Source of the DNA: Escherichia coli | Lineage (GTDB): Bacteria; Pseudomonadota; Gammaproteobacteria; Enterobacterales; Enterobacteriaceae | Assembly: GCF_036507355.1 (NCBI RefSeq) | Contig: NZ_AP027877.1 | Strand: one strand, 5' to 3' | Length of the DNA: 64,000 bases | In this document: one piece after another, positions 37,451 to 63,113 of the stretch | How the letters are laid out: every line of letters begins with the position of its first letter | How positions within the stretch are numbered: the first letter of the stretch is position 1 | Notes under the pieces: generated by a model | What the model saw: the letters and a program-made list of their open reading frames with translations, nothing else | What the model was told of the DNA's origin: nothing | Databases searched by the model: none | Made by a program: the position numbers and the translations under genes

Positions 37451-37526
37451 TGGTGGGTCGTGCAGGATTCGAACCTGCGACCAATTGATTAAAAGTCAAC
37501 TGCTCTACCAACTGAGCTAACGACCC
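37451..37526 (-). tRNA. lysY: tRNA-Lys (UUU)
   Basis: 76-nt copy identical to the other tRNA-Lys genes. Confidence 0.93.
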
Positions 37527-37529
37527 GAG

Positions 37530-37605
37530 TGGTGGGTGATGACGGGATCGAACCGCCGACCCCCTCCTTGTAAGGGAGGTGCTCTCCCAGCTGAGCTAAT
37601 CACCC
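37530..37605 (-). tRNA. valZ: tRNA-Val (UAC)
   Basis: Reverse complement of GGGTGATTAGCTCAGCTGGGAGAGCACCTCCCTTACAAGGAGG...CCA. Confidence 0.93.
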
Positions 37606-37656
37606 GATACTGCGCTGGATACTACAAACTACTTCCACCGAACCCACCGTAATTAG

Positions 37657-37732
37657 TGGTGGGTCGTGCAGGATTCGAACCTGCGACCAATTGATTAAAA
37701 GTCAACTGCTCTACCAACTGAGCTAACGACCC
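37657..37732 (-). tRNA. lysW: tRNA-Lys (UUU)
   Basis: 76-nt copy identical to the other tRNA-Lys genes. Confidence 0.93.
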
Positions 37733-37734
37733 GG

Positions 37735-37810
37735 TGGTGGGTGATGACGGGATCGAACCGCCGACCCCCTCCTTGTAAGGGAGGTGCTCTCCCAGCTGAG
37801 CTAATCACCC
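37735..37810 (-). tRNA. valT: tRNA-Val (UAC)
   Basis: 76-nt tRNA-Val copy. Confidence 0.93.
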
Positions 37811-37845
37811 GATACTACGCTGGATACTACAACTAACTAGGTTAG

Positions 37846-37921
37846 TGGTGGGTCGTGCAGGATTCGAACCTGCGACCAATTGATTAAAAGTCAACTGCTC
37901 TACCAACTGAGCTAACGACCC
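37846..37921 (-). tRNA. lysT: tRNA-Lys (UUU)
   Basis: 76-nt tRNA-Lys copy, first gene of the operon. Confidence 0.93.
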
Positions 37922-45448: not shown

Positions 45449-47017
45449 TTAGCGTGCCGGCTGAGTAGTCGTGGAAGACTGCTCAAAGTGATAGCGACCG
45501 GTTTTCAGGCTGCTTGGGCCGAGGCGTGCAAACTTGAACATTAAGAACAATTCTGCCACCAGGAACAGGGTATACAGGCCGCAAATCAGCACCATTGAGA
45601 AGATGAGATCGCCTGCGGTCAGTGACGAGTTCGCCACAGCTGTCGGCAGCACTTCACCGATAGCCCACGGTTGGCGGCCATATTCAGCCACGAACCAGCC
45701 CGCTTCTACAGCAATCCACGGCAGCGGAATACCGTACAGCGCGGCGCGCAGCAGCCATTTTTTCTCGCCAATGCGGTTGCGGATAACACTCCAGAAAGAG
45801 AGCGCGATGATTGCCAGCAGCAGGAAGCCACACGCCACCATGATACGGAACGCGAAGTACAGCGGCGCTACACGCGGAATGGAGTCTTTGGTTGCCTGTT
45901 GAATCTGAGCTTCAGTCGCATCAGCCACGTTTGGCGTATAGCGTTTCAGCAGCAGACCATAACCGAGGTCTTTCTTCATGCTATTGAACTGGTCACGAAC
46001 CGCCTGGTCGGTAGAACCAGAACGCAGCTGTTCGAGCAGAGAGTACGCCTTCATCCCGTTACGAATGCGTTCTTCATGCTGCACCATCAGTTCTTTCAGG
46101 CCGATAACTGGAGTATCCACGGAACGCGTTGCAATGATGCCCAGCGCGTAAGGGATCTGGATCGCAAATTTGTTCGTCTCCTCTTCCTGATCAGGAATGC
46201 CGAACAGAGTAAAGGCAGCAGGCGCAGGTTGCGTTTCCCACTCGGCTTCAATAGCAGCCAGTTTGGTTTTCTGCACGTCGCCCATTTCGTAGCCGGATTC
46301 ATCACCCAGAACAATAACAGACAGAACGGCAGCCATACCGAAGCTGGCAGCGATAGCAAAGGAGCGTTTAGCGAAGGCGAAGTCACGACCTTTCAGCATA
46401 TACCATGCGCTGATACCGAGGATGAACATCGCGCCAGTCACATAACCAGACGCTACAGTGTGAACGAATTTCACCTGAGCAACCGGGTTAAGCACCAGCT
46501 CGGAGAAGCTCACCATCTCCATACGCATAGTTTCAAAGTTGAAATCGGACGCGATTGGGTTTTGCATCCAGCCGTTCGCAACCAGAATCCACAGTGCGGA
46601 CAGGTTTGAACCGAGCGCCACCAGCCAGGTGACACACATATGCTGAACTTTACCCAGACGATCCCAACCGAAGAAGAACAGACCTACAAAGGTGGATTCG
46701 AGGAAGAAGGCCATCAGACCTTCGATTGCCAGCGGCGCACCGAAGATATCCCCTACATAGTGGGAATAGTAAGACCAGTTAGTCCCGAACTGGAACTCCA
46801 TGGTCAGACCGGTAGCCACACCCAGAGCGAAGTTGATACCAAACAACTTGCCCCAGAACTTGGTCATATCTTTATAAATCTGTTTGCCGGAAAGGACGTA
46901 GACCGTTTCCATAATGGCCAGCAGGAACGCCATACCGAGCGTCAGTGGCACAAAAAGGAAGTGGTACATCGCGGTCAAGGCAAACTGTAAGCGCGACAGT
47001 TCGACTATATCTAACAT
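45449..47017 (-). CDS. cydA: Cytochrome bd-I ubiquinol oxidase subunit I
   Basis: [24 protein letters not shown]...; 522 aa from the second ATG. Confidence 0.96.
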
Positions 47018-47355
47018 CATGACTCCTTGCTCATCGCATGAAGACTCCGAGAGTGAACCCCGTTAGAAAGGGTCACACGCATGCCCCAATACAAAATTAT
47101 TTGCTCGCCTCTATCGTTGCCATTTCATCAAAAGAGGAAAAGACAATGATAAAAAAAGTTACAAATATGTTAATGAATAAACCAAATTGATCCCGTAATT
47201 ATATTACGCCGCAAAATCCTTACAATAAACAGGTTTTTATTGAGCAAATTTGCATTTTTCGACAGTGATCAATTTATAGCGAAATTGTCACGATCTCACC
47301 AATTTGATCTACGACAATTTATCGTGTTTTGCAGAATTTTTTCAAGAATTAAAAA

Positions 47356-47369
47356 TTGATTTATATCAA
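47356..47369. promoter_or_regulatory. FNR-type site in the cydA upstream region
   Basis: TTGAT-ttat-ATCAA, a perfect match to TTGAT-N4-ATCAA, in the long AT-rich cydA control region. Confidence 0.6.
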
Positions 47370-47823
47370 AACCAATCAAATATGTTAATTATGTATAAAC
47401 CATAGATCATTGGTGATTTTATTGTTAATTTATTGTGAAATATTTATGCAACACAATTATTACAATGAAAAGGTATAGATAAAAAACCAGTATTTTATTT
47501 AACAGAACCGCCTTATCCACTTTTTATAATACCAATTGATTAGAGTAGCCAATTTGTTGCTATTTTACATAACATATTTTTATCAAAGTTAATTGATTGT
47601 TACCTTTATGAGCACCGACCGTAAGCCCGTTATGTTATTGTTTCATTAGTAATAATCACTTAAATGTATCGATGAAACAGGTATGACTTACCGGGAGTGA
47701 TTGTTTCTGAGTGAACAGAGGCCACTTTCGCCTGATAAATGAAAAATGAGCGATTTTTGCAAGTTAGTTTTTCTATAGCCGAGTACGCTCAGCGCCTCGC
47801 TTGATTACAATGAGGTTGCTGCT

Positions 47824-48768
47824 ATGAGTCCTGATAATATCGGTTCGGCTGTCAATCGCTTCTCAGGTTGGCCATCTAATGATTCTCTAAAAACAGATAA
47901 AGAATCAATGACATCACCCGTGACTGTGCAGGTAATAAAGATGATTGCCGCCATCCTTGACCCACATCGGATAGTCGTTGGAATCGATACACTTTATACA
48001 ACGCAGCGCGAAACATTTACCTCAGAGAGTCAACAGCTCATTGAATCAGCATTGCAAACACTTCATGTGATGAATTTAAATAATCTGGAAACAAATCGCG
48101 ATGAAGAAGGTCACTATCTGGCTTTTGAATATAACGTTGACACCTCTGACAGAATAACCGTTTCTGCTTATAATGAAAAAAAGCCTGGCTGCTATGGCCA
48201 ATGTCTTGTAATACAGGATGACGAAACAGACTTATTTAACCTGATAAAAATTAAAATTTTCGAAGCCAGGCATAATTATGTCGCTCAATTGATGAGCGAT
48301 CCGGAATTTATGTTCAAATTCAGTTATAGCGCTCAACAAAATAGATTAGAACCTCATCTTCTGGTTCCCGCTTATTTCCCTCTAAAAACAAACGAACCGG
48401 TTACGCAAGAGGATGTACTGTTACTTTATCGTTTCTTTAAAATGAATGATGATTTTAATAAATTAACATCAGATGAATACATGAGTATCCTGACACCTCT
48501 GATGAAGTGTGAGCGTAGCGTCCACGACAACAACAGGTATGTGACGGGCAAAGATACCCTTCTTCTGGACTATCCTCCTTCTGGTAACCAGATACATTTC
48601 CATGTTTTCCCTGACGAATCAGCAACACTAGTCCTTTATTTTTCAAACAATGACCTTGAATGTTTCGTCTTTGAAAGAGATATTCCTAGCCAGTATCGCT
48701 TTTTCAAAATGTTTACCAATCTGGCACTGGTTATAGATCAGTTAACCGAAGCCAATAAAATACTTTAA
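47824..48768 (+). CDS. Hypothetical protein, AT-rich, no recognisable domain
   Basis: 314-aa uninterrupted ORF with visibly lower GC than flanking core genes; absent from the K-12 gene order at this locus. Confidence 0.55.
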   Translation: MSPDNIGSAVNRFSGWPSNDSLKTDKESMTSPVTVQVIKMIAAILDPHRIVVGIDTLYTTQRETFTSESQQLIESALQTLHVMNLNNLETNRDEEGHYLAFEYNVDTSDRITVSAYNEKKPGCYGQCLVIQDDETDLFNLIKIKIFEARHNYVAQLMSDPEFMFKFSYSAQQNRLEPHLLVPAYFPLKTNEPVTQEDVLLLYRFFKMNDDFNKLTSDEYMSILTPLMKCERSVHDNNRYVTGKDTLLLDYPPSGNQIHFHVFPDESATLVLYFSNNDLECFVFERDIPSQYRFFKMFTNLALVIDQLTEANKIL

Positions 48769-48848
48769 TTTTCTATATATCCCTATGGCTAATATTGCTA
48801 AACAATGCCTGGGGATTAATTTTTATTACTCACGGAAAGATTTAAATA

Positions 48849-49271
48849 ATGATACCATCTCAGATCTCTTTCAATACCCTTCCAGTCAATGCAACATACG
48901 CTTCAGAGACAACAGTTGACACACAAAAATTCTCTGACATCCTCTACTCAGCGGGGTGTTCCCTAAAGGATATGGCTTATCTGAGCAGATGTCTGGCATC
49001 AATACACCCGACTATCGCCAAAAACATTTATGAAACAGAAAATCTCAGCGATCAAAAATTACTGCATATTGATTGCCGTAGTACAAATGAAATCAAGATA
49101 AATATCTTTTTTGGTCAGCAAAGAGAAGGGTTAATTGAAATTAGTTCTGACACAGTTATTTTTTCGATACTGTCTTCATTGATTGACTCCGCCATTTCTA
49201 AATTTCAACACCAAAACCCGGTTAACGGTTTAGTTAATCCTGAAATATTGTATGAGGATTATACTGATTAA
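48849..49271 (+). CDS. Hypothetical protein, AT-rich
   Basis: 140-aa ORF immediately downstream of and co-oriented with the 314-aa ORF; plausible RBS (ggaaag) upstream. Confidence 0.45.
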   Translation: MIPSQISFNTLPVNATYASETTVDTQKFSDILYSAGCSLKDMAYLSRCLASIHPTIAKNIYETENLSDQKLLHIDCRSTNEIKINIFFGQQREGLIEISSDTVIFSILSSLIDSAISKFQHQNPVNGLVNPEILYEDYTD

Positions 49272-49818
49272 ATCCACCCTGTCGCGAAAAATGGCCTGCG
49301 TTATTGCCAGACGTAATAAAACCTTTGATTAACGTTACTCATACTGGTAGCACCTTCATGTACCTCTCTTTTTTACGAAAAATCAAAAGAGCTAACTAAG
49401 GTCATAATTCGCATGAATCATTAACCATTTGTTATTTTCAACATTATTTTTACATTAAGCAGAGATGAATTGCAGTGAAATTCGACTTAAATCTTATGAA
49501 ATGCATTTACTCATGGCTAAAACCACGTCACAAAAATGCAAATTAGAAGTAGATCACAATTATCTCAATACATTAAATCAAGTTAATTTTAAAAATTTAA
49601 CATTCATGACATTAGTTGACATAACACACTGAATTAACATGGAAATTTAAAAACACACTTTAAACAATCATTTCCCGAAAGACATTTTGAAAATAGATCA
49701 ATTGCAACATTACGGTCAGATAAAGACACTCCTGTGATATTAAACCTGTGCCGTTATGAACGGCCATAAATACGACGTGTGTAACTTATTTTACTCTCTG
49801 TCTTACAAAGGATTACCC

Positions 49819-50268
49819 ATGAAGAAAGCAACACTTGTGATTGGCGTTATTGGCGCGGACTGCCATGCAGTAGGCAATAAAGTTCTGGACCGCGTTTTTA
49901 GCAACCACGACTTCAGAGTCATTAATCTGGGCGTAATGGTCAGCCAGGACGAATATATTGATGCTGCCATTGAAACTGGCGCTGACGCGATTGTCGTCTC
50001 CTCTATCTATGGGCATGGCGATATCGACTGTCTGGGCATGCGCGAACGCTGCATCGAGCGTGGACTGGGGGACATCCTGCTCTATGTGGGCGGTAACCTG
50101 GTGGTCGGAAAACATGACTTCGCTGACGTGGAAACCAAATTCAAAGAGATGGGATTTGATCGCGTCTTTGCCCCAAGTCATGACTTAGAAGATGTTTGTC
50201 AGCTGATGGCCCACGATATCAACCAACGTCATGACATTGATACTCGTATTCTTGAAGAGGCTATCTGA
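49819..50268 (+). CDS. glmS: Glutamate mutase sigma subunit (B12-binding)
   Basis: [22 protein letters not shown]... with the DxHxxG cobalamin-binding motif; about 149 aa; RBS aaagga. Confidence 0.85.
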
Positions 50269-51656
50269 TGCAAATCGTCTCTGTCGATATTGGATCGACG
50301 TGGACCAAAGCAGCCCTCTTCACCCGGGAGGGGGACGCGTTAACGTTGGTTAACCACGTACTGACCCCAACCACCACCCATCATCTGGCGAAGGGGTTTT
50401 TCTCCAGCCTGAACCAAGTGTTAAACGTAGATAATGCCCTCCCCCTGTTAAACAGCGGTGAGGTTGCATTGAAGTATTCCTCCTCTGCCAAAGGTGGGCT
50501 GGCGGTTGCCGCAATGGGATTGGTGCCTTCTATCACCCTGGAAACCGCGAAAGTAACCGCTCACTCTGCGGGTGCTAAAATTGCGCAATATTACGCCTAC
50601 AAGCTGAACCGCCGTGATATCCAGGCACTGGAAGAAACGCAGCCCGATATTCTCTTGTTCACCGGCGGCACCGACGGCGGAGAAGAAAGCTACGGACTGA
50701 ATAACGCCCGTGTGCTGGCAGAATCCAAACTCGACTGCGCCATTATTTATGCCGGAAACCGGGATATTCAGGACGAGGTGCAGGAGCTCCTCGGGCATAA
50801 AGACCTGACCATCGTCGACAATGTTCTGCCCGATCTTGACCATCCGAACCCTTTAGCCGCACGCCAGGCTATTTGCGACATATTCCTTAAACGCATCGTT
50901 AAAGGGAAAGGGCTGGATGTCATTGTTGATAAAACAGGCGAAGAACCAATGCCGACACCATGGACGGTCTTTGAACTGGTCAAGGCAATCAGTAACGTCG
51001 ATCACAGCTGGAAAGAGTTCATGCTGATCGACATGGGCGGCGCAACCACCGATGTTTATTCCGTCTGTGCCAACACGCTCTCGCCCGACACCGTTTTACA
51101 CGGCGTACCGGAACCCTTCGTAAAACGGACGGTGGAAGGCGATCTGGGAATGCGCGTCTCGGCAGTGGTGGTTGGTGAAAGTGCGAAAGAGTTAGTCAAT
51201 GTGAATTTTGCTCAGCAACCCGCACAGCTGGACGCTTTTTATCATTACCTCCGTCATCTAGTCGCTCATCCCGACTACTTACCCGCAAATGCAGAAGAGA
51301 AATATTTCGATACCGTCCTGGCCGGACTGTGTGTGGGTTATGCCACCGAAAGACATGCGGGCACCAAAAAAGAGGTCTGCACCTGCGTCGGCAATGTCGA
51401 TTTACAGATGGGACGTGACCTGACAACCGTGCGTAAAGTCGTCGGATCCGGCGGATGGCTCTCGCGTGCCAGTCAGTTCGATATGCATCACTGGTTGAAA
51501 TACCGCGAGTTAAACGACGACGGTAAACGCATTCTCTTACCGACCGAATTTGAATATTACCGCGATTCCCGGGGGCTATTACCACTGCTGGCAAACGTCG
51601 CCAGAGTCGATCCGCTGGCCGCCGCGCGCACCAGTATTCAATGCTTAACCCTATAA
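50268..51656 (+). CDS. glmL: Glutamate mutase accessory protein GlmL/MutL-like
   Basis: 462 aa between the S and E subunit genes, the size and position expected for GlmL. Confidence 0.75.
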   Translation: MQIVSVDIGSTWTKAALFTREGDALTLVNHVLTPTTTHHLAKGFFSSLNQVLNVDNALPLLNSGEVALKYSSSAKGGLAVAAMGLVPSITLETAKVTAHSAGAKIAQYYAYKLNRRDIQALEETQPDILLFTGGTDGGEESYGLNNARVLAESKLDCAIIYAGNRDIQDEVQELLGHKDLTIVDNVLPDLDHPNPLAARQAICDIFLKRIVKGKGLDVIVDKTGEEPMPTPWTVFELVKAISNVDHSWKEFMLIDMGGATTDVYSVCANTLSPDTVLHGVPEPFVKRTVEGDLGMRVSAVVVGESAKELVNVNFAQQPAQLDAFYHYLRHLVAHPDYLPANAEEKYFDTVLAGLCVGYATERHAGTKKEVCTCVGNVDLQMGRDLTTVRKVVGSGGWLSRASQFDMHHWLKYRELNDDGKRILLPTEFEYYRDSRGLLPLLANVARVDPLAAARTSIQCLTL

Positions 51657-51674
51657 CAATTAAGGCTGCAATCA

Positions 51675-53120
51675 ATGGAACTTCGAAATAAGAAATTAAC
51701 CCATGACGAATTCATGACCGAGCGGCAACAGGTACTGAAAACCTGGGAAACCGGCAAGGATGTTGAAAACTTTGAAGATGGCGTTAAATACCAACAAACC
51801 ATCCCTGAGCATAAACGCTTCTCTCTTGCGCTGCTGAAAGCAGACAAGGAAGGTAAAACCCTTAGCCAACCGCGCGCAGGTGTGGCGCTGATGGACGAAC
51901 ACATCGAACTGCTGAAAACACTACAAGAAGAGTGCGATCTGCTGCCAAGCACCATCGATGCATATACCCGTCTGAATCGGTACGAAGAAGCGGCTGTAGG
52001 GATTAAAAAATCCATCGAAGCCGGAACCTCTAAACTGAACGGTTTACCGGTAGTTAACCATGGTGTCGCAGCTTGCCGTCGCCTCACCGAAACCCTGCAA
52101 AAACCGCTACAGATCCGCCACGGCACGCCAGATGCGCGTCTGCTGGCTGAAATCTCAATGGCCAGCGGCTTTACCAGTTATGAAGGCGGTGGCATTTCCT
52201 ACAACATTCCGTATGCCAAACGCGTAACGCTGGAAAAATCGATCCGCGACTGGCAGTACTGCGACCGTTTAATGGGGATGTATGAAGAACACGGGATCCG
52301 CATCAACCGCGAACCGTTTGGCCCACTAACGGGTACGCTGATCCCGCCGTTTATCTCGCATTCTATCGCGATAATCGAAGGCTTGCTGGCACTGGAACAG
52401 GGTGTGAAATCTATCACCGTTGGTTATGGCCAGGTCGGCAGCCTGACGCAGGATGTTGCGGCGATCCAGTCTCTGCGTGAACTTGCACACGAATATTTTC
52501 AGAGCTATGGCTATACCGACTATGAATTGAGTACCGTGTTTCACCAGTGGATGGGCGGCTTTCCGGAAGACGAATCGAAAGCGTTCGCTATTATCTCCTG
52601 GGGTGCAGCCGTCGCGGGGATGTCTGGTGCCACCAAAGTCATCACCAAAAGTCCGCACGAAGCCTGGGGTATCCCGACTGCCGCTGCCAACATTCAGGGG
52701 CTGAAAGCCTCCCGCCAGATGCTCAACATGGTCAATGAGCAGAAATTCCCGCCGTGCCCTGCGGTTGAACTGGAAATTGAACTGATTAAGAGCGAGGTTC
52801 GCGCTGTACTGAATAAAGTGTTCGAACTGGGTAATGGTGATATTGCGCGCGGTACGGTGCTGGCATTTGAAGCGGGCGTACTGGATGTGCCATTTGCGCC
52901 AGCCGCCTGCAACGCGGGCAATATTCTTCCGGTCCGTGACAACACCGGCGCGATACGCGTACTGGAAGCCGGAGCCGTTCCATTGCCAAAAGATATTCTC
53001 GATCTCCACCACGATTACGTTGCGGAACGCGCACGCTTTGAAGGACGCCAACCGACATTCCAGATGGTTGTAGATGACATCAATGCTGTATCCCACAGTA
53101 AATTAATAGGAAGACCATAA
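51675..53120 (+). CDS. glmE: Glutamate mutase epsilon (catalytic) subunit
   Basis: 481 aa, the size and position expected for GlmE/MutE. Confidence 0.8.
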   Translation: MELRNKKLTHDEFMTERQQVLKTWETGKDVENFEDGVKYQQTIPEHKRFSLALLKADKEGKTLSQPRAGVALMDEHIELLKTLQEECDLLPSTIDAYTRLNRYEEAAVGIKKSIEAGTSKLNGLPVVNHGVAACRRLTETLQKPLQIRHGTPDARLLAEISMASGFTSYEGGGISYNIPYAKRVTLEKSIRDWQYCDRLMGMYEEHGIRINREPFGPLTGTLIPPFISHSIAIIEGLLALEQGVKSITVGYGQVGSLTQDVAAIQSLRELAHEYFQSYGYTDYELSTVFHQWMGGFPEDESKAFAIISWGAAVAGMSGATKVITKSPHEAWGIPTAAANIQGLKASRQMLNMVNEQKFPPCPAVELEIELIKSEVRAVLNKVFELGNGDIARGTVLAFEAGVLDVPFAPAACNAGNILPVRDNTGAIRVLEAGAVPLPKDILDLHHDYVAERARFEGRQPTFQMVVDDINAVSHSKLIGRP

Positions 53121-54361
53121 TGAAAATAAAACAGGCTCTGTTCACCGCTGGCTACTCCTCATTCTATTTCGATGACCAGCAGGCGATAAAAAACGGAGCG
53201 GGTCATGACGGCTTTTTTTATACCGGGGAGCCGGTAACACAGGGGTTTAACGCCGTTCGTCAGGCCGGGGAGTGCGTATCGGTACAGTTGATTCTGGAAA
53301 ACGGCGCGGTCGCTGTAGGTGACTGTGCTGCCGTACAGTATTCCGGGGCAGGTGGTCGCGACCCACTGTTCCTCGCAGAGCTCTTTATTCCGTTCCTCAA
53401 CGACCATATCAAGCCATTACTGGTAGGCCGCGATGTGGATGCTTTCCTGCCGAATGCCCGTTTCTTCGACAAATTGCGTATTGACGGCAACTTGCTGCAT
53501 ACCGCCGTGCGCTACGGATTATCACAGGCGCTGCTTGATGCTACCGCGCTGGCAACCGGCCGTCTGAAAACTGAAGTGGTCTGTGATGAATGGCAGTTGC
53601 CACGCGTGGCGGAATCCATTCCATTATTTGGTCAGAGCGGCGACGATCGATATATCGCCGTCGATAAGATGATCCTTAAGGGCATCGACGTGCTGCCCCA
53701 TGCGCTGATTAATAACGTCGAAGAGAAGCTGGGCTTTAAAGGTGAAAAACTGCGCGAATATGTCCGCTGGTTGTCGGATCGCATTCTAAGCAAGCGCACC
53801 AGCGCACGCTACCACCCAACCTTGCACATCGATGTATACGGCACTATCGGTCTGATCTTCGATATGGATCCGCTTCGCTGTGCGCAATACATCGCCAGCC
53901 TGGAAAAAGAAGCGCAAGGCCTGCCGCTCTACATTGAAGGGCCGGTCGATGCCGGTAACAAGCCCGATCAAATTCGCCTGCTGACCGCGATTACCAAAGA
54001 GCTGACGCGCCTCGGTTCCGGCGTGAAAATTGTGGCCGATGAATGGTGTAACACCTACCAGGATGTTGTTGATTTCACTGATGCCGCCAGTTGTCACATG
54101 GTGCAAATCAAAACCCCGGATCTGGGCAGTATTCACAACATCGTCGATGCGGTTCTTTACTGCAACAGCCACAGCATGGAAGCGTACCAGGGCGGCACCT
54201 GCAATGAAACTGATGTCAGTGCCCGCACCTGTGTCCACGTCGCCCTTGCCGCTCGCCCTATGCGTATGCTGGTAAAGCCAGGGATGGGCTTTGACGAAGG
54301 CCTCGATATCGTCTTCAACGAAATGAATCGTACTATCGCGCTGTTGCAGGCTAAGGATTAA
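53120..54361 (+). CDS. 3-methylaspartate ammonia-lyase (enolase superfamily)
   Basis: 413 aa, directly downstream of glmE. Confidence 0.82.
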   Translation: MKIKQALFTAGYSSFYFDDQQAIKNGAGHDGFFYTGEPVTQGFNAVRQAGECVSVQLILENGAVAVGDCAAVQYSGAGGRDPLFLAELFIPFLNDHIKPLLVGRDVDAFLPNARFFDKLRIDGNLLHTAVRYGLSQALLDATALATGRLKTEVVCDEWQLPRVAESIPLFGQSGDDRYIAVDKMILKGIDVLPHALINNVEEKLGFKGEKLREYVRWLSDRILSKRTSARYHPTLHIDVYGTIGLIFDMDPLRCAQYIASLEKEAQGLPLYIEGPVDAGNKPDQIRLLTAITKELTRLGSGVKIVADEWCNTYQDVVDFTDAASCHMVQIKTPDLGSIHNIVDAVLYCNSHSMEAYQGGTCNETDVSARTCVHVALAARPMRMLVKPGMGFDEGLDIVFNEMNRTIALLQAKD

Positions 54362-54364
54362 CAA

Positions 54365-55734
54365 ATGGCTCGTTCTTTTAAAGTCTTATCGCCAACAGCA
54401 ATCCTCGGGTATGGATTCCCGGAAGAGAGCTTCCGCAAAGCGATGGCAGAATCACCCGATCTGATCGCCGTTGATGCAGGCTCTTCCGATCCAGGCCCCC
54501 ACTACCTCGGGCAGGCAAACCGTTTACCGATCGCGCAGGGGTCAAGCGCGATCTGCGCTATATGATCACCGCAGGCGTGCAAAATAATATACCGGTGGTG
54601 ATCGGAACGGCCGGCGGTTCTGGTGCCGCTCCACACCTGGAGTGGTGCCGAGAAATAATTCATGAGATTGCCCAGGAAGAGCACCTCTCGTTCTCGATGG
54701 CGTTGATCCCGGCAGACGTTGACAAAGCCATCGTCCACCAGGCGCTGGATAACGGCAAAATCACGGCGCTGGATTTTGTCCCGCCGTTAACCCACGACGC
54801 GATTGACGAAAGTACGTATATCGTCGCGCAAATGGGCATCGAACCCTTCCAGCGGGCGCTAAAAGAAGGCGCGCAAGTGGTGCTGGGTGGGCGCGCTTAC
54901 GACCCGGCCTGCTTTGCTGCGCTACCGATCATGCAAGGCTTTGATGAAGGTCTGGCGCTGCATTGTGGGAAAATCCTTGAATGCGCGGCAATCGCCGCAA
55001 CGCCCGGCTCAGGCTCTGACTGTGCGATGGGCATCATTGATGACAACGGCTTTACGCTGAAGACATTTAATCCGAAGCGTAAATTTACCGAAACGTCAGC
55101 AGCTGCACACACACTGTATGAGAAATCCGATCCCTACTTCCTGCCAGGACCTGGCGGCGTGTTGAACCTGAAAGGCTGCACATTTAAAGCAGTCAATGAC
55201 GGCGAAGTCTACGTCAGCGGTTCTAAGCATGAAGAAACGCCGTATGCCCTGAAACTGGAAGGTGCACGACGGGTGGGCTTCCGCTGTCTGACCATCGCCG
55301 GAACGCGCGACCCGATTATGATCGCCGGGATCGATAAACTCATCGATGAAGTCAAAACCAGCGTTTCGCGTAACCTGTCGCTCGACGATGACAGCATTCG
55401 CATCAATTTCCACCTGTACGGCAAAAACGGGGTGATGGGAGACCATGAACCGATGCAAACTGCCGGGCATGAGCTGGGGATTGTTCTTGATGTAGTTGCA
55501 CCGACCCAGGAAATTGCCAATAGCGTTTGCTCGCTGGTGCGCTCTACCATGCTGCACTACGGCTATGAAAACCGCATCGCTACCGCAGGTAATCTGGCGT
55601 TCCCGTTCTCCCCTTCTGATATCCAGGGCGGGCCGGTATACGAATTTTCCATATATCACCTGATTGAAGCCAACGACGCTCTGCGTTTTGATTTCCATAT
55701 TGAACAGGTGACGCCAGAAGGAGTTCAGGCATGA
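54365..55734 (+). pseudogene. AtuA-like DUF1446 protein with an apparent +1 frameshift near 54515-54565
   Basis: Two consecutive ORFs (54365..54565 and 54562..55734) in different frames together make one ~455-aa DUF1446-type protein. Confidence 0.55.
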
Positions 55735-56048
55735 AACAGTCAATTGTCTCACTGGCGCAAGTCATTCGTTCGAAAAATGCCGGACCTTACGAACTGGTTT
55801 TAGATATTTTATTTAAAACGAAAGAAAACTATGAGCGAGTTAAATCATCAGGGCAATTAACCCCAGAACTGATTGCGCGCTTATATCATGTTGAACCTGA
55901 CTTTATTCATCGTATTGTCTGGTTTGATCCTTCTAACGCAGTAAAAATCGTCATGCCACGAGATATTATCTCCGGGAATGTAGGTGACAATGATGTCTAT
56001 GGTGCACAGCAACATGCACCTTTATTAAATATGAGTTTCGATTTGTAA
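55731..56048 (+). CDS. DUF4387-family small protein (partner of DUF1446)
   Basis: 105 aa, start overlaps the DUF1446 stop. Confidence 0.6.
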   Translation: MKQSIVSLAQVIRSKNAGPYELVLDILFKTKENYERVKSSGQLTPELIARLYHVEPDFIHRIVWFDPSNAVKIVMPRDIISGNVGDNDVYGAQQHAPLLNMSFDL

Positions 56049-56208
56049 AAATCCGAATACTTTTAGCCAACTGACATCCCGTCACTTATTGCAGTTCAAC
56101 ACTTCAGCTATTTGTAAGGTTGTAATAGCAGGTAGATGCCTGAATCTCTATTCAGGCATCTACTTCTCCTGATTCTGATTTATCGCCGTGCACCTGATGG
56201 AGGAAAAA

Positions 56209-57489
56209 ATGAAGAAAATAAGTTTAACCACGATGATTCTTTTGGCGCTGGTACTTGGAATGATTATCGGCGTAGTGCTCAATAACACTGCTTCACCGGA
56301 AACAGCAAAACTCTATGCGCAAGAAATATCGATATTCACGACGATTTTCTTACGACTGATAAAAATGATTATCGCTCCGTTAGTGGTCTCTACCCTGGTG
56401 GTAGGTATTGCTAAAATGGGCGATGCCAAAGCCCTTGGTCGTATTTTTTCTAAAACACTCTTTTTATTTATTTGCGCCTCATTGCTGTCAATTGCCTTAG
56501 GCTTGATAACGGTAAATTTCTTCATGCCAGGCACAGGAATTAATTTTGTTGCACACGGTGCCGAAACCACAGGAGTGGTCGCGTCAGAACCCTTTACGCT
56601 AAAAGTATTTATTTCGCATGCTTTCCCCACCAGCATTGTCGATGCCATGGCGCACAATGAAATTTTGCAAATCGTGGTGTTCTCAATTTTCCTCGGCTGT
56701 AGCCTGACGGCGATTGGCGAGAAAGGCAGCGCCATCGTTCACGCCTTAGATTCGCTGGCACATGCCATGTTAAAGCTCACTGGCTACGTCATGCTCTTCG
56801 CTCCCCTGACCGTATTCGCCGCTATTTCAGCATTGATTGCTGAACGAGGACTGGCAGTTATGGTGAGCGCCGGGATCTTTATGGGTGAATTTTATTTCAC
56901 CATGTTATTACTTTGGGTGCTGCTTATCGGTCTGGCCATCGTTTATGTCGGCCCCTGCATCAGACGCCTGACCCGCGCCCTTTCGGAACCCGCCCTGCTG
57001 GCATTTACCACATCCAGTTCTGAAGCGGCTTTTCCGGGAACGCTTGAAAAACTGGAGCAATTTGGCGTTTCCCCCAAAATTGCCAGCTTTGTCTTACCCA
57101 TTGGCTACTCATTTAATCTCGTTGGATCAATGGCCTACTGCTCCTTCGCCACAGTTTTCATCGCCCAGGCCTGCAATATCCATTTATCCATCGGTGAGCA
57201 AATCACCATGCTGTTGATCCTGATGTTGACCTCGAAAGGAATGGCTGGCGTACCACGCGCCTCAATGGTGGTTATCGCCGCCACGCTCAACCAGTTCAAT
57301 ATTCCGGAAGCGGGGCTGATCTTGCTGATGGGCGTTGATCCGTTCCTTGATATGGGGCGTTCCGCGACAAACGTCATGAGCAACGCAATGGGCGCTGCGA
57401 TGGTGAGTCGGTGGGAAGGCGAACATTTCGGCGAGGGCTGTCGGGGTAAAGCATTAAAACCCAATGAATCGAACGTTGCTCTGCCCTGA
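56209..57489 (+). CDS. Dicarboxylate/amino acid:cation symporter (DAACS/GltP-DctA family)
   Basis: About 427-aa polytopic membrane protein; ATG at 56209 preceded by RBS ggagg. Confidence 0.8.
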   Translation: MKKISLTTMILLALVLGMIIGVVLNNTASPETAKLYAQEISIFTTIFLRLIKMIIAPLVVSTLVVGIAKMGDAKALGRIFSKTLFLFICASLLSIALGLITVNFFMPGTGINFVAHGAETTGVVASEPFTLKVFISHAFPTSIVDAMAHNEILQIVVFSIFLGCSLTAIGEKGSAIVHALDSLAHAMLKLTGYVMLFAPLTVFAAISALIAERGLAVMVSAGIFMGEFYFTMLLLWVLLIGLAIVYVGPCIRRLTRALSEPALLAFTTSSSEAAFPGTLEKLEQFGVSPKIASFVLPIGYSFNLVGSMAYCSFATVFIAQACNIHLSIGEQITMLLILMLTSKGMAGVPRASMVVIAATLNQFNIPEAGLILLMGVDPFLDMGRSATNVMSNAMGAAMVSRWEGEHFGEGCRGKALKPNESNVALP

Positions 57490-57596
57490 GGGGGATCTTA
57501 AGCAATCAGAAGCCAATGACTACGCATTTTTATAAGCCGGATCATGAAGTTAGACGGCAATTAAGTAACACTAACGTTTAAGGTGAAAAGTGAAAT

Positions 57597-59249
57597 ATGT
57601 CCAAACCATTTATCTGGCAAGAACCGTTTCTACAAAATAAAGACGGTACAGAATATACATTAATTAGCGATCAACATATTACAGTAACGGAATTAGACGG
57701 CGAAGAAGTGATAAAAATCGCTCCTGAAGCATTAACGCTGCTTGCCCGGCAGGCATTTTATGAAGCCTCTTTTTTCTTACGTTCCGCTCATTTGCAACAG
57801 GTCGCCAGCATTCTTAACGATCAGCAGGCCAGCAGTAATGATAAATACGTTGCGTTGCAGTTATTACGTAATGCTGAAGTCTCAGCAAAAGGGGTATTAC
57901 CCAACTGTCAGGATACCGGCACCGCAACTATTGTTGCCAGTAAAGGGCAACAGATATGGACCGGAAGTAACGACGCCGAAGCTTTAAGTAAAGGCATTTA
58001 CAGTACTTTCCAGGAAAATAATCTGCGCTTTTCACAAAATGCGCCGCTGGATATGTATACCGAAGTCAATACGCAAACCAATCTCCCGGCGCAGATTGAT
58101 ATCAGCGCTGTCGCTGGTGATGAGTACCATTTTCTCTGTGTTAATAAAGGGGGCGGCTCCGCCAATAAAGCCGCGCTTTATCAGGAAACCAAATCCTTAT
58201 TGCAACCAGAAAAACTGACCGCATTTTTAATCGAAAAAATGAAATCGCTGGGCACCGCTGCCTGCCCGCCTTACCACATCGCCTTTGCCGTCGGAGGGCT
58301 TTCAGCCGATCAAACCTTAAAAGTTGCCAAGCTGGCCTCAACGAAATATTACGACAATTTGCCCACCAGCGGAAACGAGCAGGGACAAGCATTCCGTGAT
58401 ATTGAGCTGGAAAAAGCGTTGCTCGAGGCCAGTCAGCAATTTGGTATTGGTGCACAATTTGGGGGGAAATATTTCGCTCATGATATTCGCGTCATTCGTC
58501 TGCCGCGTCACGGTGGCTCTTGCCCGATAGCTATGGCGCTCTCCTGTTCTGCCGATCGCAATATCAAAGCAAAAATTAACAAACACGGTATCTGGCTAGA
58601 AAAACTCGAACACAATCCGGGGCAATATATTCCAGCCTCATTGCGGGAAGAAAATCACGCGCAACATGTACAACTGGATCTAAACCGTCCGTTGCGTGAC
58701 GTGATGCTGGATCTCGCCAGATTACCGGTAGGTACCCGCGTGTCGTTAAGTGGTCCCATCGTAGTGGCGCGCGATATCGCCCACGCCAAAATAAAAGCGC
58801 GGCTGGATAGCGGCGAATCGATGCCGGAGTACCTGAAGCATCATATTGTCTATTACGCTGGCCCGGCGAAAACACCGGAGAACATGGCCTGCGGTTCACT
58901 GGGTCCAACCACGGGCGGTCGAATGGATGGTTATGTCGATACCTTCCAGGCGGCCGGCGGCAGTCTGGTGATGTTATCGAAAGGTAACCGCAGCCAGCAG
59001 GTCACCGATGCCTGTCACAAACATGGCGGCTTCAATCTGGGAAGTATTGGCGGTGCAGCTGCGTTACTGGCGCAAGAATATGTCAAAAGTCTGCGTTGCC
59101 TGGAATACCCGGAGCTGGGTATGGAAGCGGTGTGGATGATGGAAGTGGAAAATCTGCCCGCATTCATCCTGGTAGATGATAAAGGCAATAATTTCTTTAG
59201 TCAGTTTGAGCAGCAACACCGCTGCGCCAGTTGCCCTGCGGGACATTAA
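57597..59249 (+). CDS. fumD: Class I (Fe-S) fumarate hydratase paralog, likely mesaconase (FumD-type)
   Basis: 550 aa with class I fumarase features; embedded in the methylaspartate cluster. Confidence 0.8.
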
Positions 59250-59258
59250 GGAAAATGA

Positions 59259-59861
59259 ATGGAAGCGCGAATTTCAACTGAACGGCATGTGCAGCGCCAA
59301 CAGAAATTGAAGGAACAGGTCGATACGCGCGTCGCGGCGGCGATAGAGAAAAAAGGGATCTTGATTGTTTTCACCGGCAACGGCAAAGGGAAATCCACTG
59401 CCGCGTTTGGTACTGTGACGCGCGCGGTGGGTCATGGCAAAACGGTGGGGGTTGCGCAGTACATCAAGGGGCAATGGGACAACGGCGAATACAACCTTCT
59501 CCAGCCGCTGGGGGTTGAGTTTCATATTATGGGAACCGGTTTTACCTGGGAGACACAGAACCGGCAAGCGGATATCGACGCGGCGAAAGAGGTCTGGTCG
59601 GAAAGCAAACGGATGCTGGCTGACAAGCGTTACGACTTAGTGGTGCTTGATGAGCTGACCTATATGCTGGCTTACCATTATTTGGATACCGAAGAAGTGA
59701 TCGCTTCTCTGCAAAACCGCCCGGCACAACAAAGTGTCATTGTCACCGGACGCGGTTGCCACAGTCAGATATTAAAAATGGCGGATACGGTAAGCGAAAT
59801 CCGCCCCGTCAAACATGCTTTTGATAACGGCATTCAGGCCCAGCCGGGTATAGACTGGTAA
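59259..59861 (+). CDS. Cob(I)alamin adenosyltransferase (CobA/BtuR-type paralog)
   Basis: 200 aa with P-loop VFTGNGKGKSTAAFG and strong similarity to BtuR. Confidence 0.85.
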   Translation: MEARISTERHVQRQQKLKEQVDTRVAAAIEKKGILIVFTGNGKGKSTAAFGTVTRAVGHGKTVGVAQYIKGQWDNGEYNLLQPLGVEFHIMGTGFTWETQNRQADIDAAKEVWSESKRMLADKRYDLVVLDELTYMLAYHYLDTEEVIASLQNRPAQQSVIVTGRGCHSQILKMADTVSEIRPVKHAFDNGIQAQPGIDW

Positions 59862-59894
59862 TAACTGCGCCTGGCATCCCGCCAGGCGCAGGTT

Positions 59895-60557
59895 TTACAT
59901 CTCCTGCGGTACGACCGATTTCGCCAGCAACCATTCACGAAATTGCTGCAAGTGCGGTGAGTCAGACTTCTCTTCCTGCCACGTCATAATAAAACGATTA
60001 CCGGTACGAATAGGCACATCACAGGGAATCACCATATCGCCACTATCCAAATCATGTTGAATAGCGAAACGTGGTAACAGCGCCACGCCGAGATTAGAGC
60101 GCACGGCGGCAATCAGCATTGAAAGCAAATCGAAACGTGGTCCGTTATTGACCAACGGACTGCTAACGCCAGATAAAGCAAACCACTCTTCCCAGCCAGT
60201 AATACGGGTGCTTTGATGCAGAAGCGGTAACTCAGTAAGCAGTTCTGCCACTGACAGCTTTTGATCGGACATTGCAAGCAAACTGCCGCTGCATACCGGC
60301 AAAATCTCCTCATCAAAGAGATATTCTACTTCCGCCCAGGGCGCGCAAAAATTTTCGCGCATAATGACAGCATCGTACTCCCGATTAAGAAAATCGCCGT
60401 TATTAGCTAAAGAATGAATATTAACAATAATATCGGGATGTAACTTTGTGAATTCATGTAAATTTGGGATCAACCAGTGGGTACTAAAAGTAGGATTAAC
60501 GGCAAGTTCAATAACCTGAACCGTAGGCTGCCAGGTCATAATGGTATTGGTATCGCG
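59895..60557 (-). pseudogene. LysR-family regulator, C-terminal part (interrupted by IS1)
   Basis: LysR substrate-binding domain; frame is continuous with the N-terminal HTH fragment once IS1 and one copy of the 9-bp duplication are removed. Confidence 0.8.
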
Positions 60558-60612
60558 GGTGATGCTGCCAACTTACTGATTTAGTGTATGATGGTGTTTT
60601 TGAGGTGCTCCA

Positions 60613-60888
60613 GTGGCTTCTGTTTCTATCAGCTGTCCCTCCTGTTCAGCTACTGACGGGGTGGTGCGTAACGGCAAAAGCACCGCCGGACATCAGCGCT
60701 ATCTCTGCTCTCACTGCCGTAAAACATGGCAACTGCAGTTCACTTACACCGCTTCTCAACCCGGTACGCACCAGAAAATCATTGATATGGCCATGAATGG
60801 CGTTGGATGCCGGGCAACAGCCCGCATTATGGGCGTTGGCCTCAACACGATTTTACGTCACTTAAAAAACTCAGGCCGCAGTCGGTAA
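60613..60888 (+). CDS. insA: IS1 InsA
   Basis: [41 protein letters not shown]...; slippery A6C site (ttaaaaaactc) near 60868 for the InsAB' fusion. Confidence 0.95.
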
Positions 60889-61310
60889 CCTCGCGCATAC
60901 AGCCGGGCAGTGACGTCATCGTCTGCGCGGAAATGGACGAACAGTGGGGCTATGTCGGGGCTAAATCGCGCCAGCGCTGGCTGTTTTACGCGTATGACAG
61001 GCTCCGGAAGACGGTTGTTGCGCACGTATTCGGTGAACGCACGATGGCGACGCTGGGGCGTCTTATGAGCCTGCTGTCACCCTTTGACGTGGTGATATGG
61101 ATGACGGATGGCTGGCCGCTGTATGAATCCCGCCTGAAGGGAAAGCTGCACGTAATCAGCAAGCGATATACGCAGCGAATTGAGCGGCATAACCTGAATC
61201 TGAGGCAGCACCTGGCACGGCTGGGACGGAAGTCGCTGTCGTTCTCAAAATCGGTGGAGCTGCATGACAAAGTCATCGGGCATTATCTGAACATAAAACA
61301 CTATCAATAA
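60807..61310 (+). CDS. insB: IS1 InsB (transposase C-terminal frame)
   Basis: 167-aa frame overlapping insA in -1 frame; ...[44 protein letters not shown]... Confidence 0.93.
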
Positions 61311-61326
61311 GTTGGAGTCATTACCG

Positions 61327-61577
61327 GTATCGCGTTCCAGCTTATTTAATGTTTCTTTTACTATCCCCAGGTAATACTTCCCAGCATCATTAAGAAAAAT
61401 GCGTTTTTTAGAGTGTGAAAATAACGGAGTACGTAAAAATTCCTCCAGCGCACTTACTTGTCTGAATACTGCACTTTGGGTTAACGCTAACTCCTCTGCC
61501 GCTCTGGTATAACTTTCATGACGTGCGACGACCTCAAAAGTCACCAGCAGTTCCGTTTTAGGTATTTTCCCTCGCAT
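61327..61577 (-). pseudogene. LysR-family regulator, N-terminal HTH part (interrupted by IS1)
   Basis: ...FEVVARHESYTRAAEELALTQSAVFRQVSALEEFL... helix-turn-helix; the frame runs into IS1. Confidence 0.8.
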
Positions 61578-62142
61578 AATGCCGTCCCTTAAAAATAGTT
61601 TAAACCATCAAAAATACATTACTTATTACGAAGTAATGGTAACCAAAGCAGCAATAAATAATTTATAAGAATCATGATTGACATTTATAAACCAGTAAGC
61701 CTGGCGTGACAAATATCTTAATCAGATAATAATAATCCGAAAAGCACAGCGCCTTTCGAATTATCCGGAATCACATTAAGTGAAAATTATTAAATTGATA
61801 TCATTTATCATATCTGTGGATATTATGATAAACAATCAACAAAGATTTTATTTTTGATTTATAGCATATCCCTCTAAGAATTTTTGCGATGCTGCAATAT
61901 CCGGGGTAAAGACCCGATCCTGGCTGACAAATGGCACGACTTGACGAAAAGCGGTGAACATCGCTTTTGTTGATTTACTTAACGCTACGGTCAAACGCTG
62001 GGAAGCCAGTGCATCAGGTAACGATTCGAAATTCGCCGTCGTTCTTATTCGTGGCTTGCGGTCGGTTGCGGCAATCCACAGTGGCTGTGGTCATGCAGTC
62101 AAGCCTGCAGTCAGATTTCGACCGTGGTTAACCGTTTAAGGC

Positions 62143-62169
62143 ATAAAAAAGGCCATCATACGATGGCCA
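62143..62169 (-). terminator. Rho-independent terminator downstream of sucD
   Basis: ggccatcgtatgatggcc hairpin followed by a T-run on the minus strand. Confidence 0.7.
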
Positions 62170-62243
62170 ACCATGTCGAAACCGACAGCCCTTCGCCATT
62201 CCTGTAGAGGGAAGCGGCGAGGGCTATTTCTTATTACAGATAT

Positions 62244-63113
62244 TTATTTCAGAACAGTTTTCAGTGCTTCACCGATATCCGCCAGGCTGCGAACGGTTTT
62301 CACGCCTGCGGCTTCCAGAGCAGCGAATTTCTCATCCGCAGTCCCTTTCCCACCGGCAATGATGGCACCCGCGTGGCCCATACGTTTGCCTTTCGGCGCA
62401 GTCACACCAGCGATGTAACCCACAACTGGCTTGGTAACGTGCTCTTTGATGTACGCAGCTGCTTCTTCTTCAGCGCTACCGCCGATCTCACCGATCATCA
62501 CGATCGCTTCGGTCTGCGGATCTTTTTCGAACATTTCGAGAATGTCGATAAAGTTAGAGCCAGGGATCGGGTCACCGCCGATACCGACACAGGTCGACTG
62601 ACCGAAACCGTAATCCGTGGTCTGTTTAACCGCTTCATAGGTCAGTGTACCGGAACGGGAAACGATACCCACTTTACCCGGTTTGTGAATGTGACCCGGT
62701 TGGATACCAATTTTGCATTCACCCGGGGTGATAACGCCTGGGCAGTTCGGGCCGATCATACGAACGCCGGCTTCATCCAGTTTCACTTTCACAGTCAGCA
62801 TATCCAGCGTCGGGATGCCTTCAGTGATGGTGATAATCAGTTTGATGCCTGCGTCGATGGCTTCCAGAATGGAGTCTTTGCAGAACGGTGCTGGTACGTA
62901 GATAACAGAAGCGGTAGCGCCAGTAGCAGCAACAGCTTCACGCACGGTGTTGAACACCGGCAGGCCGAGGTGGGTAGTACCGCCTTTACCTGGAGTTACG
63001 CCACCAACCATTTTGGTGCCGTATGCAATGGCCTGTTCAGAGTGGAAAGTCCCCTGGCTACCGGTAAAGCCCTGGCAGATAACCTTGGTGTTTTTATCAA
63101 TTAAAATGGACAT
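62244..63113 (-). CDS. sucD: Succinyl-CoA synthetase alpha subunit
   Basis: 289 aa [33 protein letters not shown]... Confidence 0.97.

Follow-up and report, generated by a model that had tools for sequence, protein, structure and literature searches.

The 64-kb stretch of Escherichia coli DNA analysed here (the window) very probably carries the known enterobacterial methylaspartate-pathway island in a decaying state, produced by a deletion in the citramalate lyase gene cmlA and then by an IS1 insertion in the regulator gene. Given the frameshift in cmlA and the IS1 insertion in the LysR-type regulator gene, the pathway encoded here is probably not functional. The island comprises nine co-oriented genes on the + strand (49819–59861), and its ends are exact, from the ATG of glmS at 49819 to the stop codon of cobO at 59859–59861. 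The RefSeq annotation of orthologous loci agrees with all nine gene calls. The operon genes, the convergent regulator gene and its insertion are as follows.

49819–50268, + strand: glmS, methylaspartate (glutamate) mutase B12-binding subunit S (NCBIfam NF002612, 252.9 bits, cut-off 110)
50268–51656, + strand: glmL, glutamate mutase accessory (reactivating chaperone-like) protein (NF040745, 510 bits, cut-off 475; TIGR01319, 894 bits)
51675–53120, + strand: glmE, methylaspartate mutase catalytic subunit E (TIGR01503, 863.7 bits, cut-off 390)
53120–54361, + strand: mal, 3-methylaspartate ammonia-lyase, MAL (TIGR01502, 542 bits, cut-off 286)
54365–55734, + strand: cmlA (DUF1446/AtuA family), putative citramalate lyase large subunit, here a pseudogene through a 1-bp deletion
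55731–56048, + strand: cmlB (DUF4387), putative citramalate lyase small subunit, intact (Pfam PF14330, 2.9e-39)
56209–57489, + strand: DAACS-family dicarboxylate/amino acid:cation symporter (NCBIfam DctA, 312 bits, and GltP, 302 bits, both below cut-off)
57597–59249, + strand: fumD, class I (Fe-S) fumarase/mesaconase (NF011921, 1275.6 bits, cut-off 1060)
59259–59861, + strand: cobO/btuR-like cob(I)yrinic acid a,c-diamide (corrinoid) adenosyltransferase (NF004637, 295.6 bits, cut-off 185; TIGR00708, 246.6 bits, cut-off 167.75)
59895–61577, − strand: LysR-type regulator gene, orthologue of ECs0755, convergent to the operon and split by IS1 (sequence reading and blastn)
60558–61325, + strand: IS1, 768 bp (sequence reading and blastn)

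The family assignments of GlmS, GlmL, GlmE, MAL, the class I fumarase and CobO all pass the curated NCBIfam cut-offs. The homology searches that a first-pass annotation of this DNA had proposed return NCBIfam and PDB matches that fit the families it named, with the transporter placed in DAACS and below cut-off for both DctA and GltP. Against clostridial PDB entries, the enzymes of the window match with E-values from 1e-49 to 1e-189. GlmS matches PDB 1I9C (E=1.4e-49) and in that alignment retains the cobalamin motif D14-x-H16-x-x-G19 as D14-C-H16-A-V-G19, and GlmE matches chain B of 6H9E/1CB7 (E=1e-189). An S subunit with DxHxxG is thus present together with an E subunit, as in a B12-dependent glutamate mutase.

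MAL is about 92% identical to the Citrobacter amalonaticus enzyme (1KKO) and, when aligned without gaps to 1KCZ and 1KKO, retains Q172, H194, D238, E273, D307, Q329, K331, T360 and C361. In Clostridium tetanomorphum numbering, K331 and H194 are catalytic and D238, E273 and D307 are the Mg ligands, with Q329 also belonging to this set. The residues of an enolase-superfamily 3-methylaspartate ammonia-lyase are therefore in place. The MAL of O157:H7 is functional in vivo (bioRxiv 10.1101/2025.11.12.688011).

The fumarase paralog belongs by sequence to the FumD subgroup, and it scores below the cut-off of the FumA model. It differs from the protein of the O157:H7 strain TR01 at 4 of 550 residues (99.3% identical). 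A preference for mesaconate over fumarate marks the FumD mesaconases, and the O157:H7 enzyme ECs0757, characterised as a mesaconase/fumarase, is the one whose substrate preference has been measured (PMC4682846).

The first-pass annotation reported a DUF1446/DUF4387 pair. Pfam bears out the presence of both families (AtuA/DUF1446 and DUF4387), but the window carries the DUF1446 gene only as a pseudogene, and the pair can now be given a name. Intact CmlA aligns end to end with PDB 9ERQ_A, ‘citramalate lyase subunit A’, at about 92% identity (E=8.8e-292), and CmlB matches 9ERQ_B, ‘citramalate lyase subunit B’ (E=5.2e-57). From the molecule names of 9ERQ/9EVF, together with a preprint that used the genes, the pair appears to be the citramalate lyase CmlAB. 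In that work, cmlAB of Raoultella (R. planticola) reportedly split citramalate directly to pyruvate and acetate, and allowed mesaconate-dependent growth of an adaptively evolved host but not of the unevolved strain (bioRxiv 10.64898/2026.01.16.699985). As the pair matches CmlAB, the route encoded by an intact island is complete, on paper, to pyruvate and acetate. The match thus accounts for what was formerly the only unexplained gene pair of the pathway. In the output of annotation pipelines, CmlA still appears as ‘AtuA family’ or ‘3-methylaspartate ammonia-lyase’, and CmlB is called ‘DUF4387’ or ‘acyl-CoA synthetase’.

The route from glutamate through methylaspartate and mesaconate to (S)-citramalate had been proposed before, and the gene identities behind it hold according to NCBIfam, orthology and the published work on the island (PMC4682846). 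In an intact island, the DAACS symporter, presumed from its family to import glutamate or a C5-dicarboxylate, would supply glutamate, and CobO would make AdoCbl by adenosylating salvaged corrinoid. With GlmL maintaining its activity, GlmS/GlmE would rearrange L-glutamate to (2S,3S)-3-methylaspartate, from which MAL would release ammonia to give mesaconate. FumD would hydrate mesaconate to (S)-citramalate, as shown for the O157:H7 enzyme, and CmlAB would cleave citramalate directly to pyruvate and acetate. The convergent LysR-type protein is presumed to control the operon. E. coli is not known to make B12 de novo.

In the window the cmlA gene has lost one base, GGGG having become GGG at 54509–54511. 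The deletion splits the gene into a 66-codon 5′ open reading frame (54365–54565) and a 390-codon 3′ open reading frame (54562–55734) which overlap in ATGA, and only the first 48 residues of the 5′ fragment are native. Any product of the 3′ frame would lack the highly conserved first 66 residues. The intact 456-residue gene is found in MEW, WCHEC96200, TR01 and Sakai, and the intact GGGG allele in 812 of the 5,426 complete E. coli genomes. A full-length DUF1446 protein encoded beside a DUF4387 protein is accordingly missing from the window, where CmlA breaks off after codon 48 by comparison with the named reference proteins (9ERQ/9EVF and R. planticola CmlAB), although the locus is clearly orthologous to 9ERQ. 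CmlB shows no amino-acid difference from MEW, WCHEC96200 or TR01.

A homopolymer sequencing or assembly error, with cmlA truly intact, would be in keeping with a 1-bp change in a run of G, a classic error site, and with the finding of the GGG allele in none of the 5,426 complete E. coli genomes. However, the allele is also present in at least three independent assemblies from different projects (GCA_905398585.1, GCA_016660925.1 and Logan SRR31122001, here L008, L009 and L012), which are otherwise 99.95–99.99% identical to the window and all have an intact LysR gene. Because the same allele recurs in these near-identical assemblies, the frameshift is considered real, and an error is hardly credible. 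An island that is still fully functional is improbable too, if somewhat less so. The stop codon of the shifted frame overlaps an in-frame ATG (Met67 of CmlA), so that reinitiation at ATGA (54562–54565) could yield CmlA without residues 1–66, or a two-piece CmlA, working with CmlB, the regulator being dispensable or else a repressor, so that losing it would de-repress the genes. The remaining eight operon genes are full length with few amino-acid changes from the reference strains, and several related isolates have kept the frameshift. The persistence of the frameshift says little about selection, since these relatives are at least 99.95% identical. Against reinitiation, residues 8–64 are among the most conserved of the family (some 32 columns do not vary among 18 homologues down to 61% identity), and the 5′ fragment holds just 48 native residues. 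No split CmlA occurs among the 120 best homologues listed, in which the shorter entries resemble contig fragments. An exact look-up found no product identical to the 390-residue fragment, and the same look-up with GlmL returned the near-identical relatives.

The loss of cmlA could also have been adaptive, leaving an island that makes and excretes (S)-citramalate or mesaconate, or one that only frees ammonia from glutamate. All genes for the steps before the lyase are intact, and Kronen and Berg suggested citramalate secretion as a possibility (PMC4682846). The second lesion, IS1 in the regulator gene, fits general decay better than refinement, and recurrent loss of cmlA is not seen among the complete genomes, where the GGG allele is absent. 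We therefore consider adaptive loss very unlikely, and equally so its extension to the whole lineage of the window and L008, L009 and L012 as B12-dependent citramalate or mesaconate producers, or carriers of an ammonia module, in which the later IS1 altered expression and did not silence it. If adaptive loss were true, the lineage would offer a natural test of what the island does physiologically in enterobacteria. In the preferred reading of stepwise decay, the cmlA deletion would be lineage-specific and the insertion of IS1 later and strain-specific. In this strain the pathway would end at citramalate at best, and its normal induction has most likely been lost.

The IS1 copy is the sole IS element in the window. 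It interrupts the LysR gene at approximately codon 84, separating the coding region of the HTH domain from that of the effector-binding domain, and is bordered by 9-bp target-site duplications, GGTATCGCG, at 60549–60557 and 61326–61334, in agreement with a 9-bp overlap of the blastn flanks. Removal of IS1 and one duplication restores a 301-residue open reading frame, which is intact in the relative L008. At this site IS1 is absent from all complete E. coli genomes, and 1119 of the 1127 complete genomes with the island have a contiguous LysR gene. About 10 kb separate the gene from the promoter region of glmS. The idea that the gene is generally a pseudogene in O157:H7, which might have explained the lack of expression that Kronen and Berg described, was rejected, as Sakai has it intact and nearly all carriers have it contiguous. 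TR01 alone is annotated with a LysR pseudogene, owing to a local double frameshift. The near-identical relatives with and without IS1 (the window against L008, L009 and L012) could be used as natural mutants for the role of the regulator.

The island of the window is the already described O157:H7-type methylaspartate-pathway island with strain-level decay. It is 99.2% identical over 13,158 nt of DNA to ECs0755–ECs0767 of E. coli O157:H7 Sakai and to EDL933, with the same gene order, and this is also its best identity to any complete E. coli genome. That ceiling raised the idea of a Shigella origin, which the presence of just one IS element in 64 kb does not support. As in the described island, glmS-glmL-glmE-mal are clustered with a fourth class I fumarase gene, fumD, but not all component genes are intact. 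Sakai has the same genes in the same order in the same cydA-sucD slot, with ECs0760 (cmlA) and ECs0755 (LysR) intact, while their orthologues in the window are frameshifted and IS1-bearing, respectively. The earlier remarks that a similar FumD cluster occurs in O157:H7 and that the cluster is strain-variable are thus both borne out, the latter by its presence in about 21% of the 5,426 complete genomes. Little of this is new, as ECs0755–ECs0767, FumD and the patchy distribution were described by Kronen and Berg in 2015 (PMC4682846). These authors also found neither detectable expression of the cluster nor growth on glutamate in their O157:H7 strain (PMC4682846), so that any physiological role of an intact island is putative. 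As cmlA and the regulator are broken, the present strain should not be scored as methylaspartate-pathway positive by gene presence alone.

The island lies between cydA (45449–47020, − strand) and sucD (62244–63113, − strand), and no mng genes are found among the open reading frames of the window between them. Coordinates and annotation thus agree with the first-pass description of cluster content, orientation, location and absence of mngRAB. Its extent of 49819–59861 is exact for the island, but the strain-variable segment around it is larger. The features of this surrounding segment are listed below.

about 47395/47660–62140: strain-variable segment (blastn of the window against the island-free loci L005, L006 and L007)
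47824–48768, + strand: low-GC open reading frame of 314 residues, orthologue of ECs0767, hypothetical in every covered island-bearing locus
48849–49271, + strand: low-GC open reading frame of 140 residues, orthologue of ECs0766, annotated in orthologous loci
56132–56163, + strand: perfect inverted repeat with 14-bp arms and a loop of 4 nt, between cmlB and the transporter gene (RNA fold −25.6 kcal/mol, z = −4.8)
59865–59891: GC-rich hairpin where the cobO and LysR genes converge, with 11 base pairs (9 GC) and a T-tail
61596–62140: AT-rich spacer of 545 bp, particular to the arrangement of the island without mng

In the island-free loci, blastn homology ends at 47394 or 47659 and restarts at 62141. 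The left edge of the variable segment is hence 47395 against K-12-like loci and 47660 against TPR-gene loci, and the right edge, on the sucD terminator side, is 62140. The region from the cydA promoter to the sucD terminator is a hypervariable slot; other strains have mngRAB there, or a TPR gene, or the island plus mngRAB. The AT-rich spacer is missing from a locus with the island, rtcB and mng (L002) and from the island-free loci by blastn. The earlier statement that the island replaces mngR-mngAB is correct for this strain and for about 87% of island carriers but fails as a strict rule. In 145 complete E. coli genomes the island, rtcB and mngBAR stand in tandem, and the island and mngRAB are therefore not allelic alternatives.

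Other methylaspartate systems share part of this chemistry. The clostridial pathway (C. tetanomorphum/C. cochlearium) proceeds in the same way via GlmS/GlmE/GlmL, MAL and a mesaconase of the class I fumarase type. In clostridia the mesaconase has two subunits and the citramalate lyase resembles citrate lyase and contains ACP (PMC4682846), whereas the enterobacterial island has a fused FumD and a CmlAB pair unrelated to the clostridial lyase. The haloarchaeal methylaspartate cycle has glutamate mutase and MAL in common with the island. In that cycle, which serves acetate assimilation, mesaconate is activated to mesaconyl-CoA; the enterobacterial island, unlike it, has no CoA-transferase or hydratase genes.

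The marks of a mobile island (integrase, flanking direct repeats and tRNA target) are lacking. No integrase is found among the open reading frames of the window and no flanking repeats beyond chance, the closest tRNAs are 10 kb off, and the sole mobile element is the secondary IS1. No Rfam match to a cobalamin riboswitch or other known RNA is found at E≤1 within 46900–62400, and a sigma-70 promoter scan gives 19 sites against 23.1 expected from shuffles, which is no enrichment. The two low-GC open reading frames have no match in Pfam, PHROGs or PADLOC. The one of 314 residues (GC 35–38%) accompanies the island wherever the region is covered, and differs from that of strain MEW by 30 nt and 20 amino acids. 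The hairpin at 59865–59891 is likely a bidirectional terminator. The inverted repeat at 56132–56163 has the same sequence in O157:H7 loci and may serve either as a terminator/attenuator inside the operon or as an operator.

Between cydA and sucD, the window carries nine co-oriented genes, all on the plus strand, exactly where the first-pass annotation had placed a methylaspartate-pathway cluster. The features of the region are as follows.

45449-47020, minus strand, cydA (flank)
47824-48768, low-GC ORF, 314 aa
48849-49271, low-GC ORF, 140 aa
49819-50268, plus strand, glmS
50268-51656, plus strand, glmL
51675-53120, plus strand, glmE
53120-54361, plus strand, mal
54365-55734, plus strand, DUF1446/AtuA-family gene (cmlA), frameshifted in the window
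55731-56048, plus strand, DUF4387 gene (cmlB)
56132-56163, perfect 14-bp inverted repeat with a 4-nt loop
56209-57489, plus strand, DAACS symporter
57597-59249, plus strand, class I fumarase
59259-59861, plus strand, cobO
59865-59891, strong hairpin between cobO and the LysR gene
60558-61325, IS1, splitting the LysR gene
61596-62140, AT-rich spacer, 545 bp
62244-63113, minus strand, sucD (flank)

The gene identities read from the sequence are borne out. The cluster agrees gene for gene with the RefSeq annotation at orthologous loci, and GlmS, GlmL, GlmE, MAL, and CobO pass the NCBIfam curated cut-offs. The fumarase scores above the curated cut-off for NCBIfam model NF011921 but not for the FumA model, while the transporter is a DAACS-family protein and the NCBIfam equivalog of neither GltP nor DctA. 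GlmS retains the cobalamin motif D14-x-H16-x-x-G19. MAL shares ~92% identity with the enzyme of Citrobacter amalonaticus (1KKO) and retains Q172, H194, D238, E273, D307, Q329, K331, T360, and C361, residues to which the MAL literature assigns roles. Apart from cmlA and the LysR gene, every island gene is full length and has few substitutions. The inverted repeat lies between cmlB and the transporter gene, in a spacer of 160 bp; it folds as RNA at -25.6 kcal/mol (z = -4.8) and is identical at O157:H7 loci, which is not so in strains MEW or WCHEC96200. Its function may be that of an internal terminator/attenuator or of an operator. No riboswitch was found at the island.

The island is an already known, published feature. 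Over 13.2 kb, the segment shares 99.2% identity with many strains, among them O157:H7 Sakai and EDL933, and its Sakai counterpart is ECs0755-ECs0767, with FumD as ECs0757, in line with the similar O157:H7 cluster cited in the first-pass annotation. It is also strain-variable, as expected there, being carried by 1,116-1,127 of 5,426 complete E. coli genomes (~21%). Kronen & Berg reported that 26.5% of E. coli genomes, and 90.6% of those of O157:H7, have the cluster, and showed the mesaconase/fumarase function of FumD (PMC4682846). In strain ATCC 700728, the authors detected neither expression of the cluster nor growth on glutamate; they left the DUF1446 gene without explanation and termed the fate of (S)-citramalate "unclear" (PMC4682846).

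The DUF1446/DUF4387 pair is assigned here as citramalate lyase CmlAB, based on the names given by PDB depositors and on the use of the genes in a preprint. Over its full length, the intact DUF1446 protein of E. coli aligns with chain A of PDB 9ERQ/9EVF (E=8.8e-292, ~92% identity), named "Citramalate lyase, subunit A (cmlA)", and the DUF4387 protein matches chain B, named "subunit B (cmlB)". The preprint employs cmlAB of Raoultella planticola, reported to split citramalate directly into pyruvate and acetate. Together with FumA, it let an acetyl-CoA auxotroph of E. coli grow in dependence on mesaconate, but not before the strain had undergone adaptive laboratory evolution; Cml-expressing strains that had not been evolved grew on neither mesaconate nor RS-citramalate (bioRxiv 10.64898/2026.01.16.699985). 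Given this assignment, the intact island would therefore encode a complete route from glutamate to pyruvate and acetate. GlmSE, with GlmL and AdoCbl made by CobO, would convert glutamate to methylaspartate, MAL would release NH3 to give mesaconate, FumD would form (S)-citramalate, and CmlAB would cleave it to pyruvate and acetate. What the transporter carries, which genes the LysR-type regulator controls and in which direction, and what the island does for E. coli physiologically, even as an intact copy, would be matters of inference. In public records, CmlA and CmlB bear outdated or incorrect names ('3-methylaspartate ammonia-lyase', 'acyl-CoA synthetase', 'AtuA family', 'DUF4387'), for example at Sakai ECs0759 and ECs0760 and in proteins P0002, P0059, and P0073.

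The methylaspartate route read from the sequence was largely right but incomplete, and damage to cmlA and the LysR gene had been overlooked. The window copy is very probably this known catabolic island at an early stage of decay. The cmlA G-run at 54509-54511 reads GGG in the window versus GGGG in MEW, WCHEC96200, EC2641, and O157:H7 TR01, a 1-bp deletion that keeps the first 48 codons native and puts the next 18 out of frame. A 45-nt probe for the GGG allele matched 0 of the 5,426 complete genomes, and its GGGG version matched 812. The allele recurs in GCA_905398585.1, GCA_016660925.1, and Logan SRR31122001, which are 99.95-99.99% identical to the window; a sequencing artefact is highly improbable and the deletion is taken as real because these three independent assemblies share it. 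The resulting split into 66 and 390 residues is also called in two of them (L008, L009), and the third (L012) has no recorded AtuA call. The lineage of the window is missing from the complete-genome set, since complete RefSeq genomes reach at most 99.1-99.2% identity in core genes and island alike (25000-47000; 47400-60558), whereas these draft and metagenome assemblies are at least 99.95% identical.

The premature TGA (54563-54565) overlaps the ATG (54562) of the 390-codon remainder, and residual function through reinitiation there is a rival reading. We consider it unlikely: across 18 homologues, down to 61% identity, CmlA residues 8-64 hold ~32 invariant columns, and because this lost N-terminus is so conserved, a product reinitiated at Met67 is predicted very unlikely to be active. 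Adaptive conversion of the island to a citramalate producer is a still less probable account. Under the favored reading of early decay, the terminal lyase would have been lost first, in the lineage, and the regulator afterwards, in the window strain.

The regulator gene (301 codons, orthologue of ECs0755) is convergent to cobO, and the IS1 within it has a perfect 9-bp duplication, GGTATCGCG, on either side. Because the three close relatives keep the LysR gene uninterrupted, this insertion postdates the cmlA frameshift. IS1 was found at this site in no complete genome, and of the 1127 island carriers among them, 1119 have the gene in one piece.

Three independent IS1 events surround the LysR gene in different strains: that of the window, one in MEW (L001 16819-17586), and one in EC2641 (L003 8001-8768). 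In MEW, 17 bp separate the element from the start codon downstream of it; the target duplication is at window-equivalent 61586-61594, and the insertion point coincides with 61595, where the WCHEC96200 arrangement diverges. In EC2641, an IS1 has taken the place of the whole stretch from the middle of the transporter gene as far as the 3' portion of the LysR gene. Six further contigs (98.5-99.3% identical to the window), one of them from the NCBI genome assembly GCA_053850415.1 and the others from Logan run assemblies and from metagenomes of ENA and JGI, have their ends inside the LysR gene within 2 nt of one position (window-equivalent 60536-60538), ~20 bp from the window's IS1 site. This shared end may reflect a breakpoint that recurs, or else an insertion carried by another lineage. 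The annotation of the TR01 gene (L004 14096-15001) is that of a pseudogene containing an internal stop, with an apparent short local double frameshift replacing NREYDAVIMRENF with NRHHHTLNQ*; the lesion is strain-specific because the Sakai copy is intact.

Comparison with island-free loci delimits a variable segment from ~47395/47660, inside the long cydA upstream region, to 62140, just beyond the sucD terminator. Four states of this slot have been observed: mngRAB alone; a TPR gene with or without mngRAB; the island alone (window, Sakai); and the island followed by rtcB and mngBAR (WCHEC96200; 145 complete genomes). The earlier statement that the island replaces mngR-mngAB therefore describes the window strain but is no general rule, because both coexist in some genomes. 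No integrase, flanking repeat, or tRNA target was found for the island. Besides operon and regulator, the segment holds the AT-rich spacer and the two low-GC ORFs (35-38%), for which a family search found none recognisable. Both ORFs always co-occur with the island. The longer one differs from MEW by 30 nt and 20 aa (glmE, 19 nt and 1 aa), and this very high non-synonymous share suggests diversifying or relaxed selection, or no real gene. The spacer is found only in the arrangement of island without mng. Some RefSeq records label a 48-codon ORF in it 'histidine ammonia-lyase'; it was not recovered in the window at the mapped coordinates and looks spurious. The window's only internal direct repeat arises from seven minus-strand tRNA genes at 37120-37921 (five tRNA-Lys UUU, two tRNA-Val UAC), which look like the ordinary E. 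coli lysT-valT cluster.
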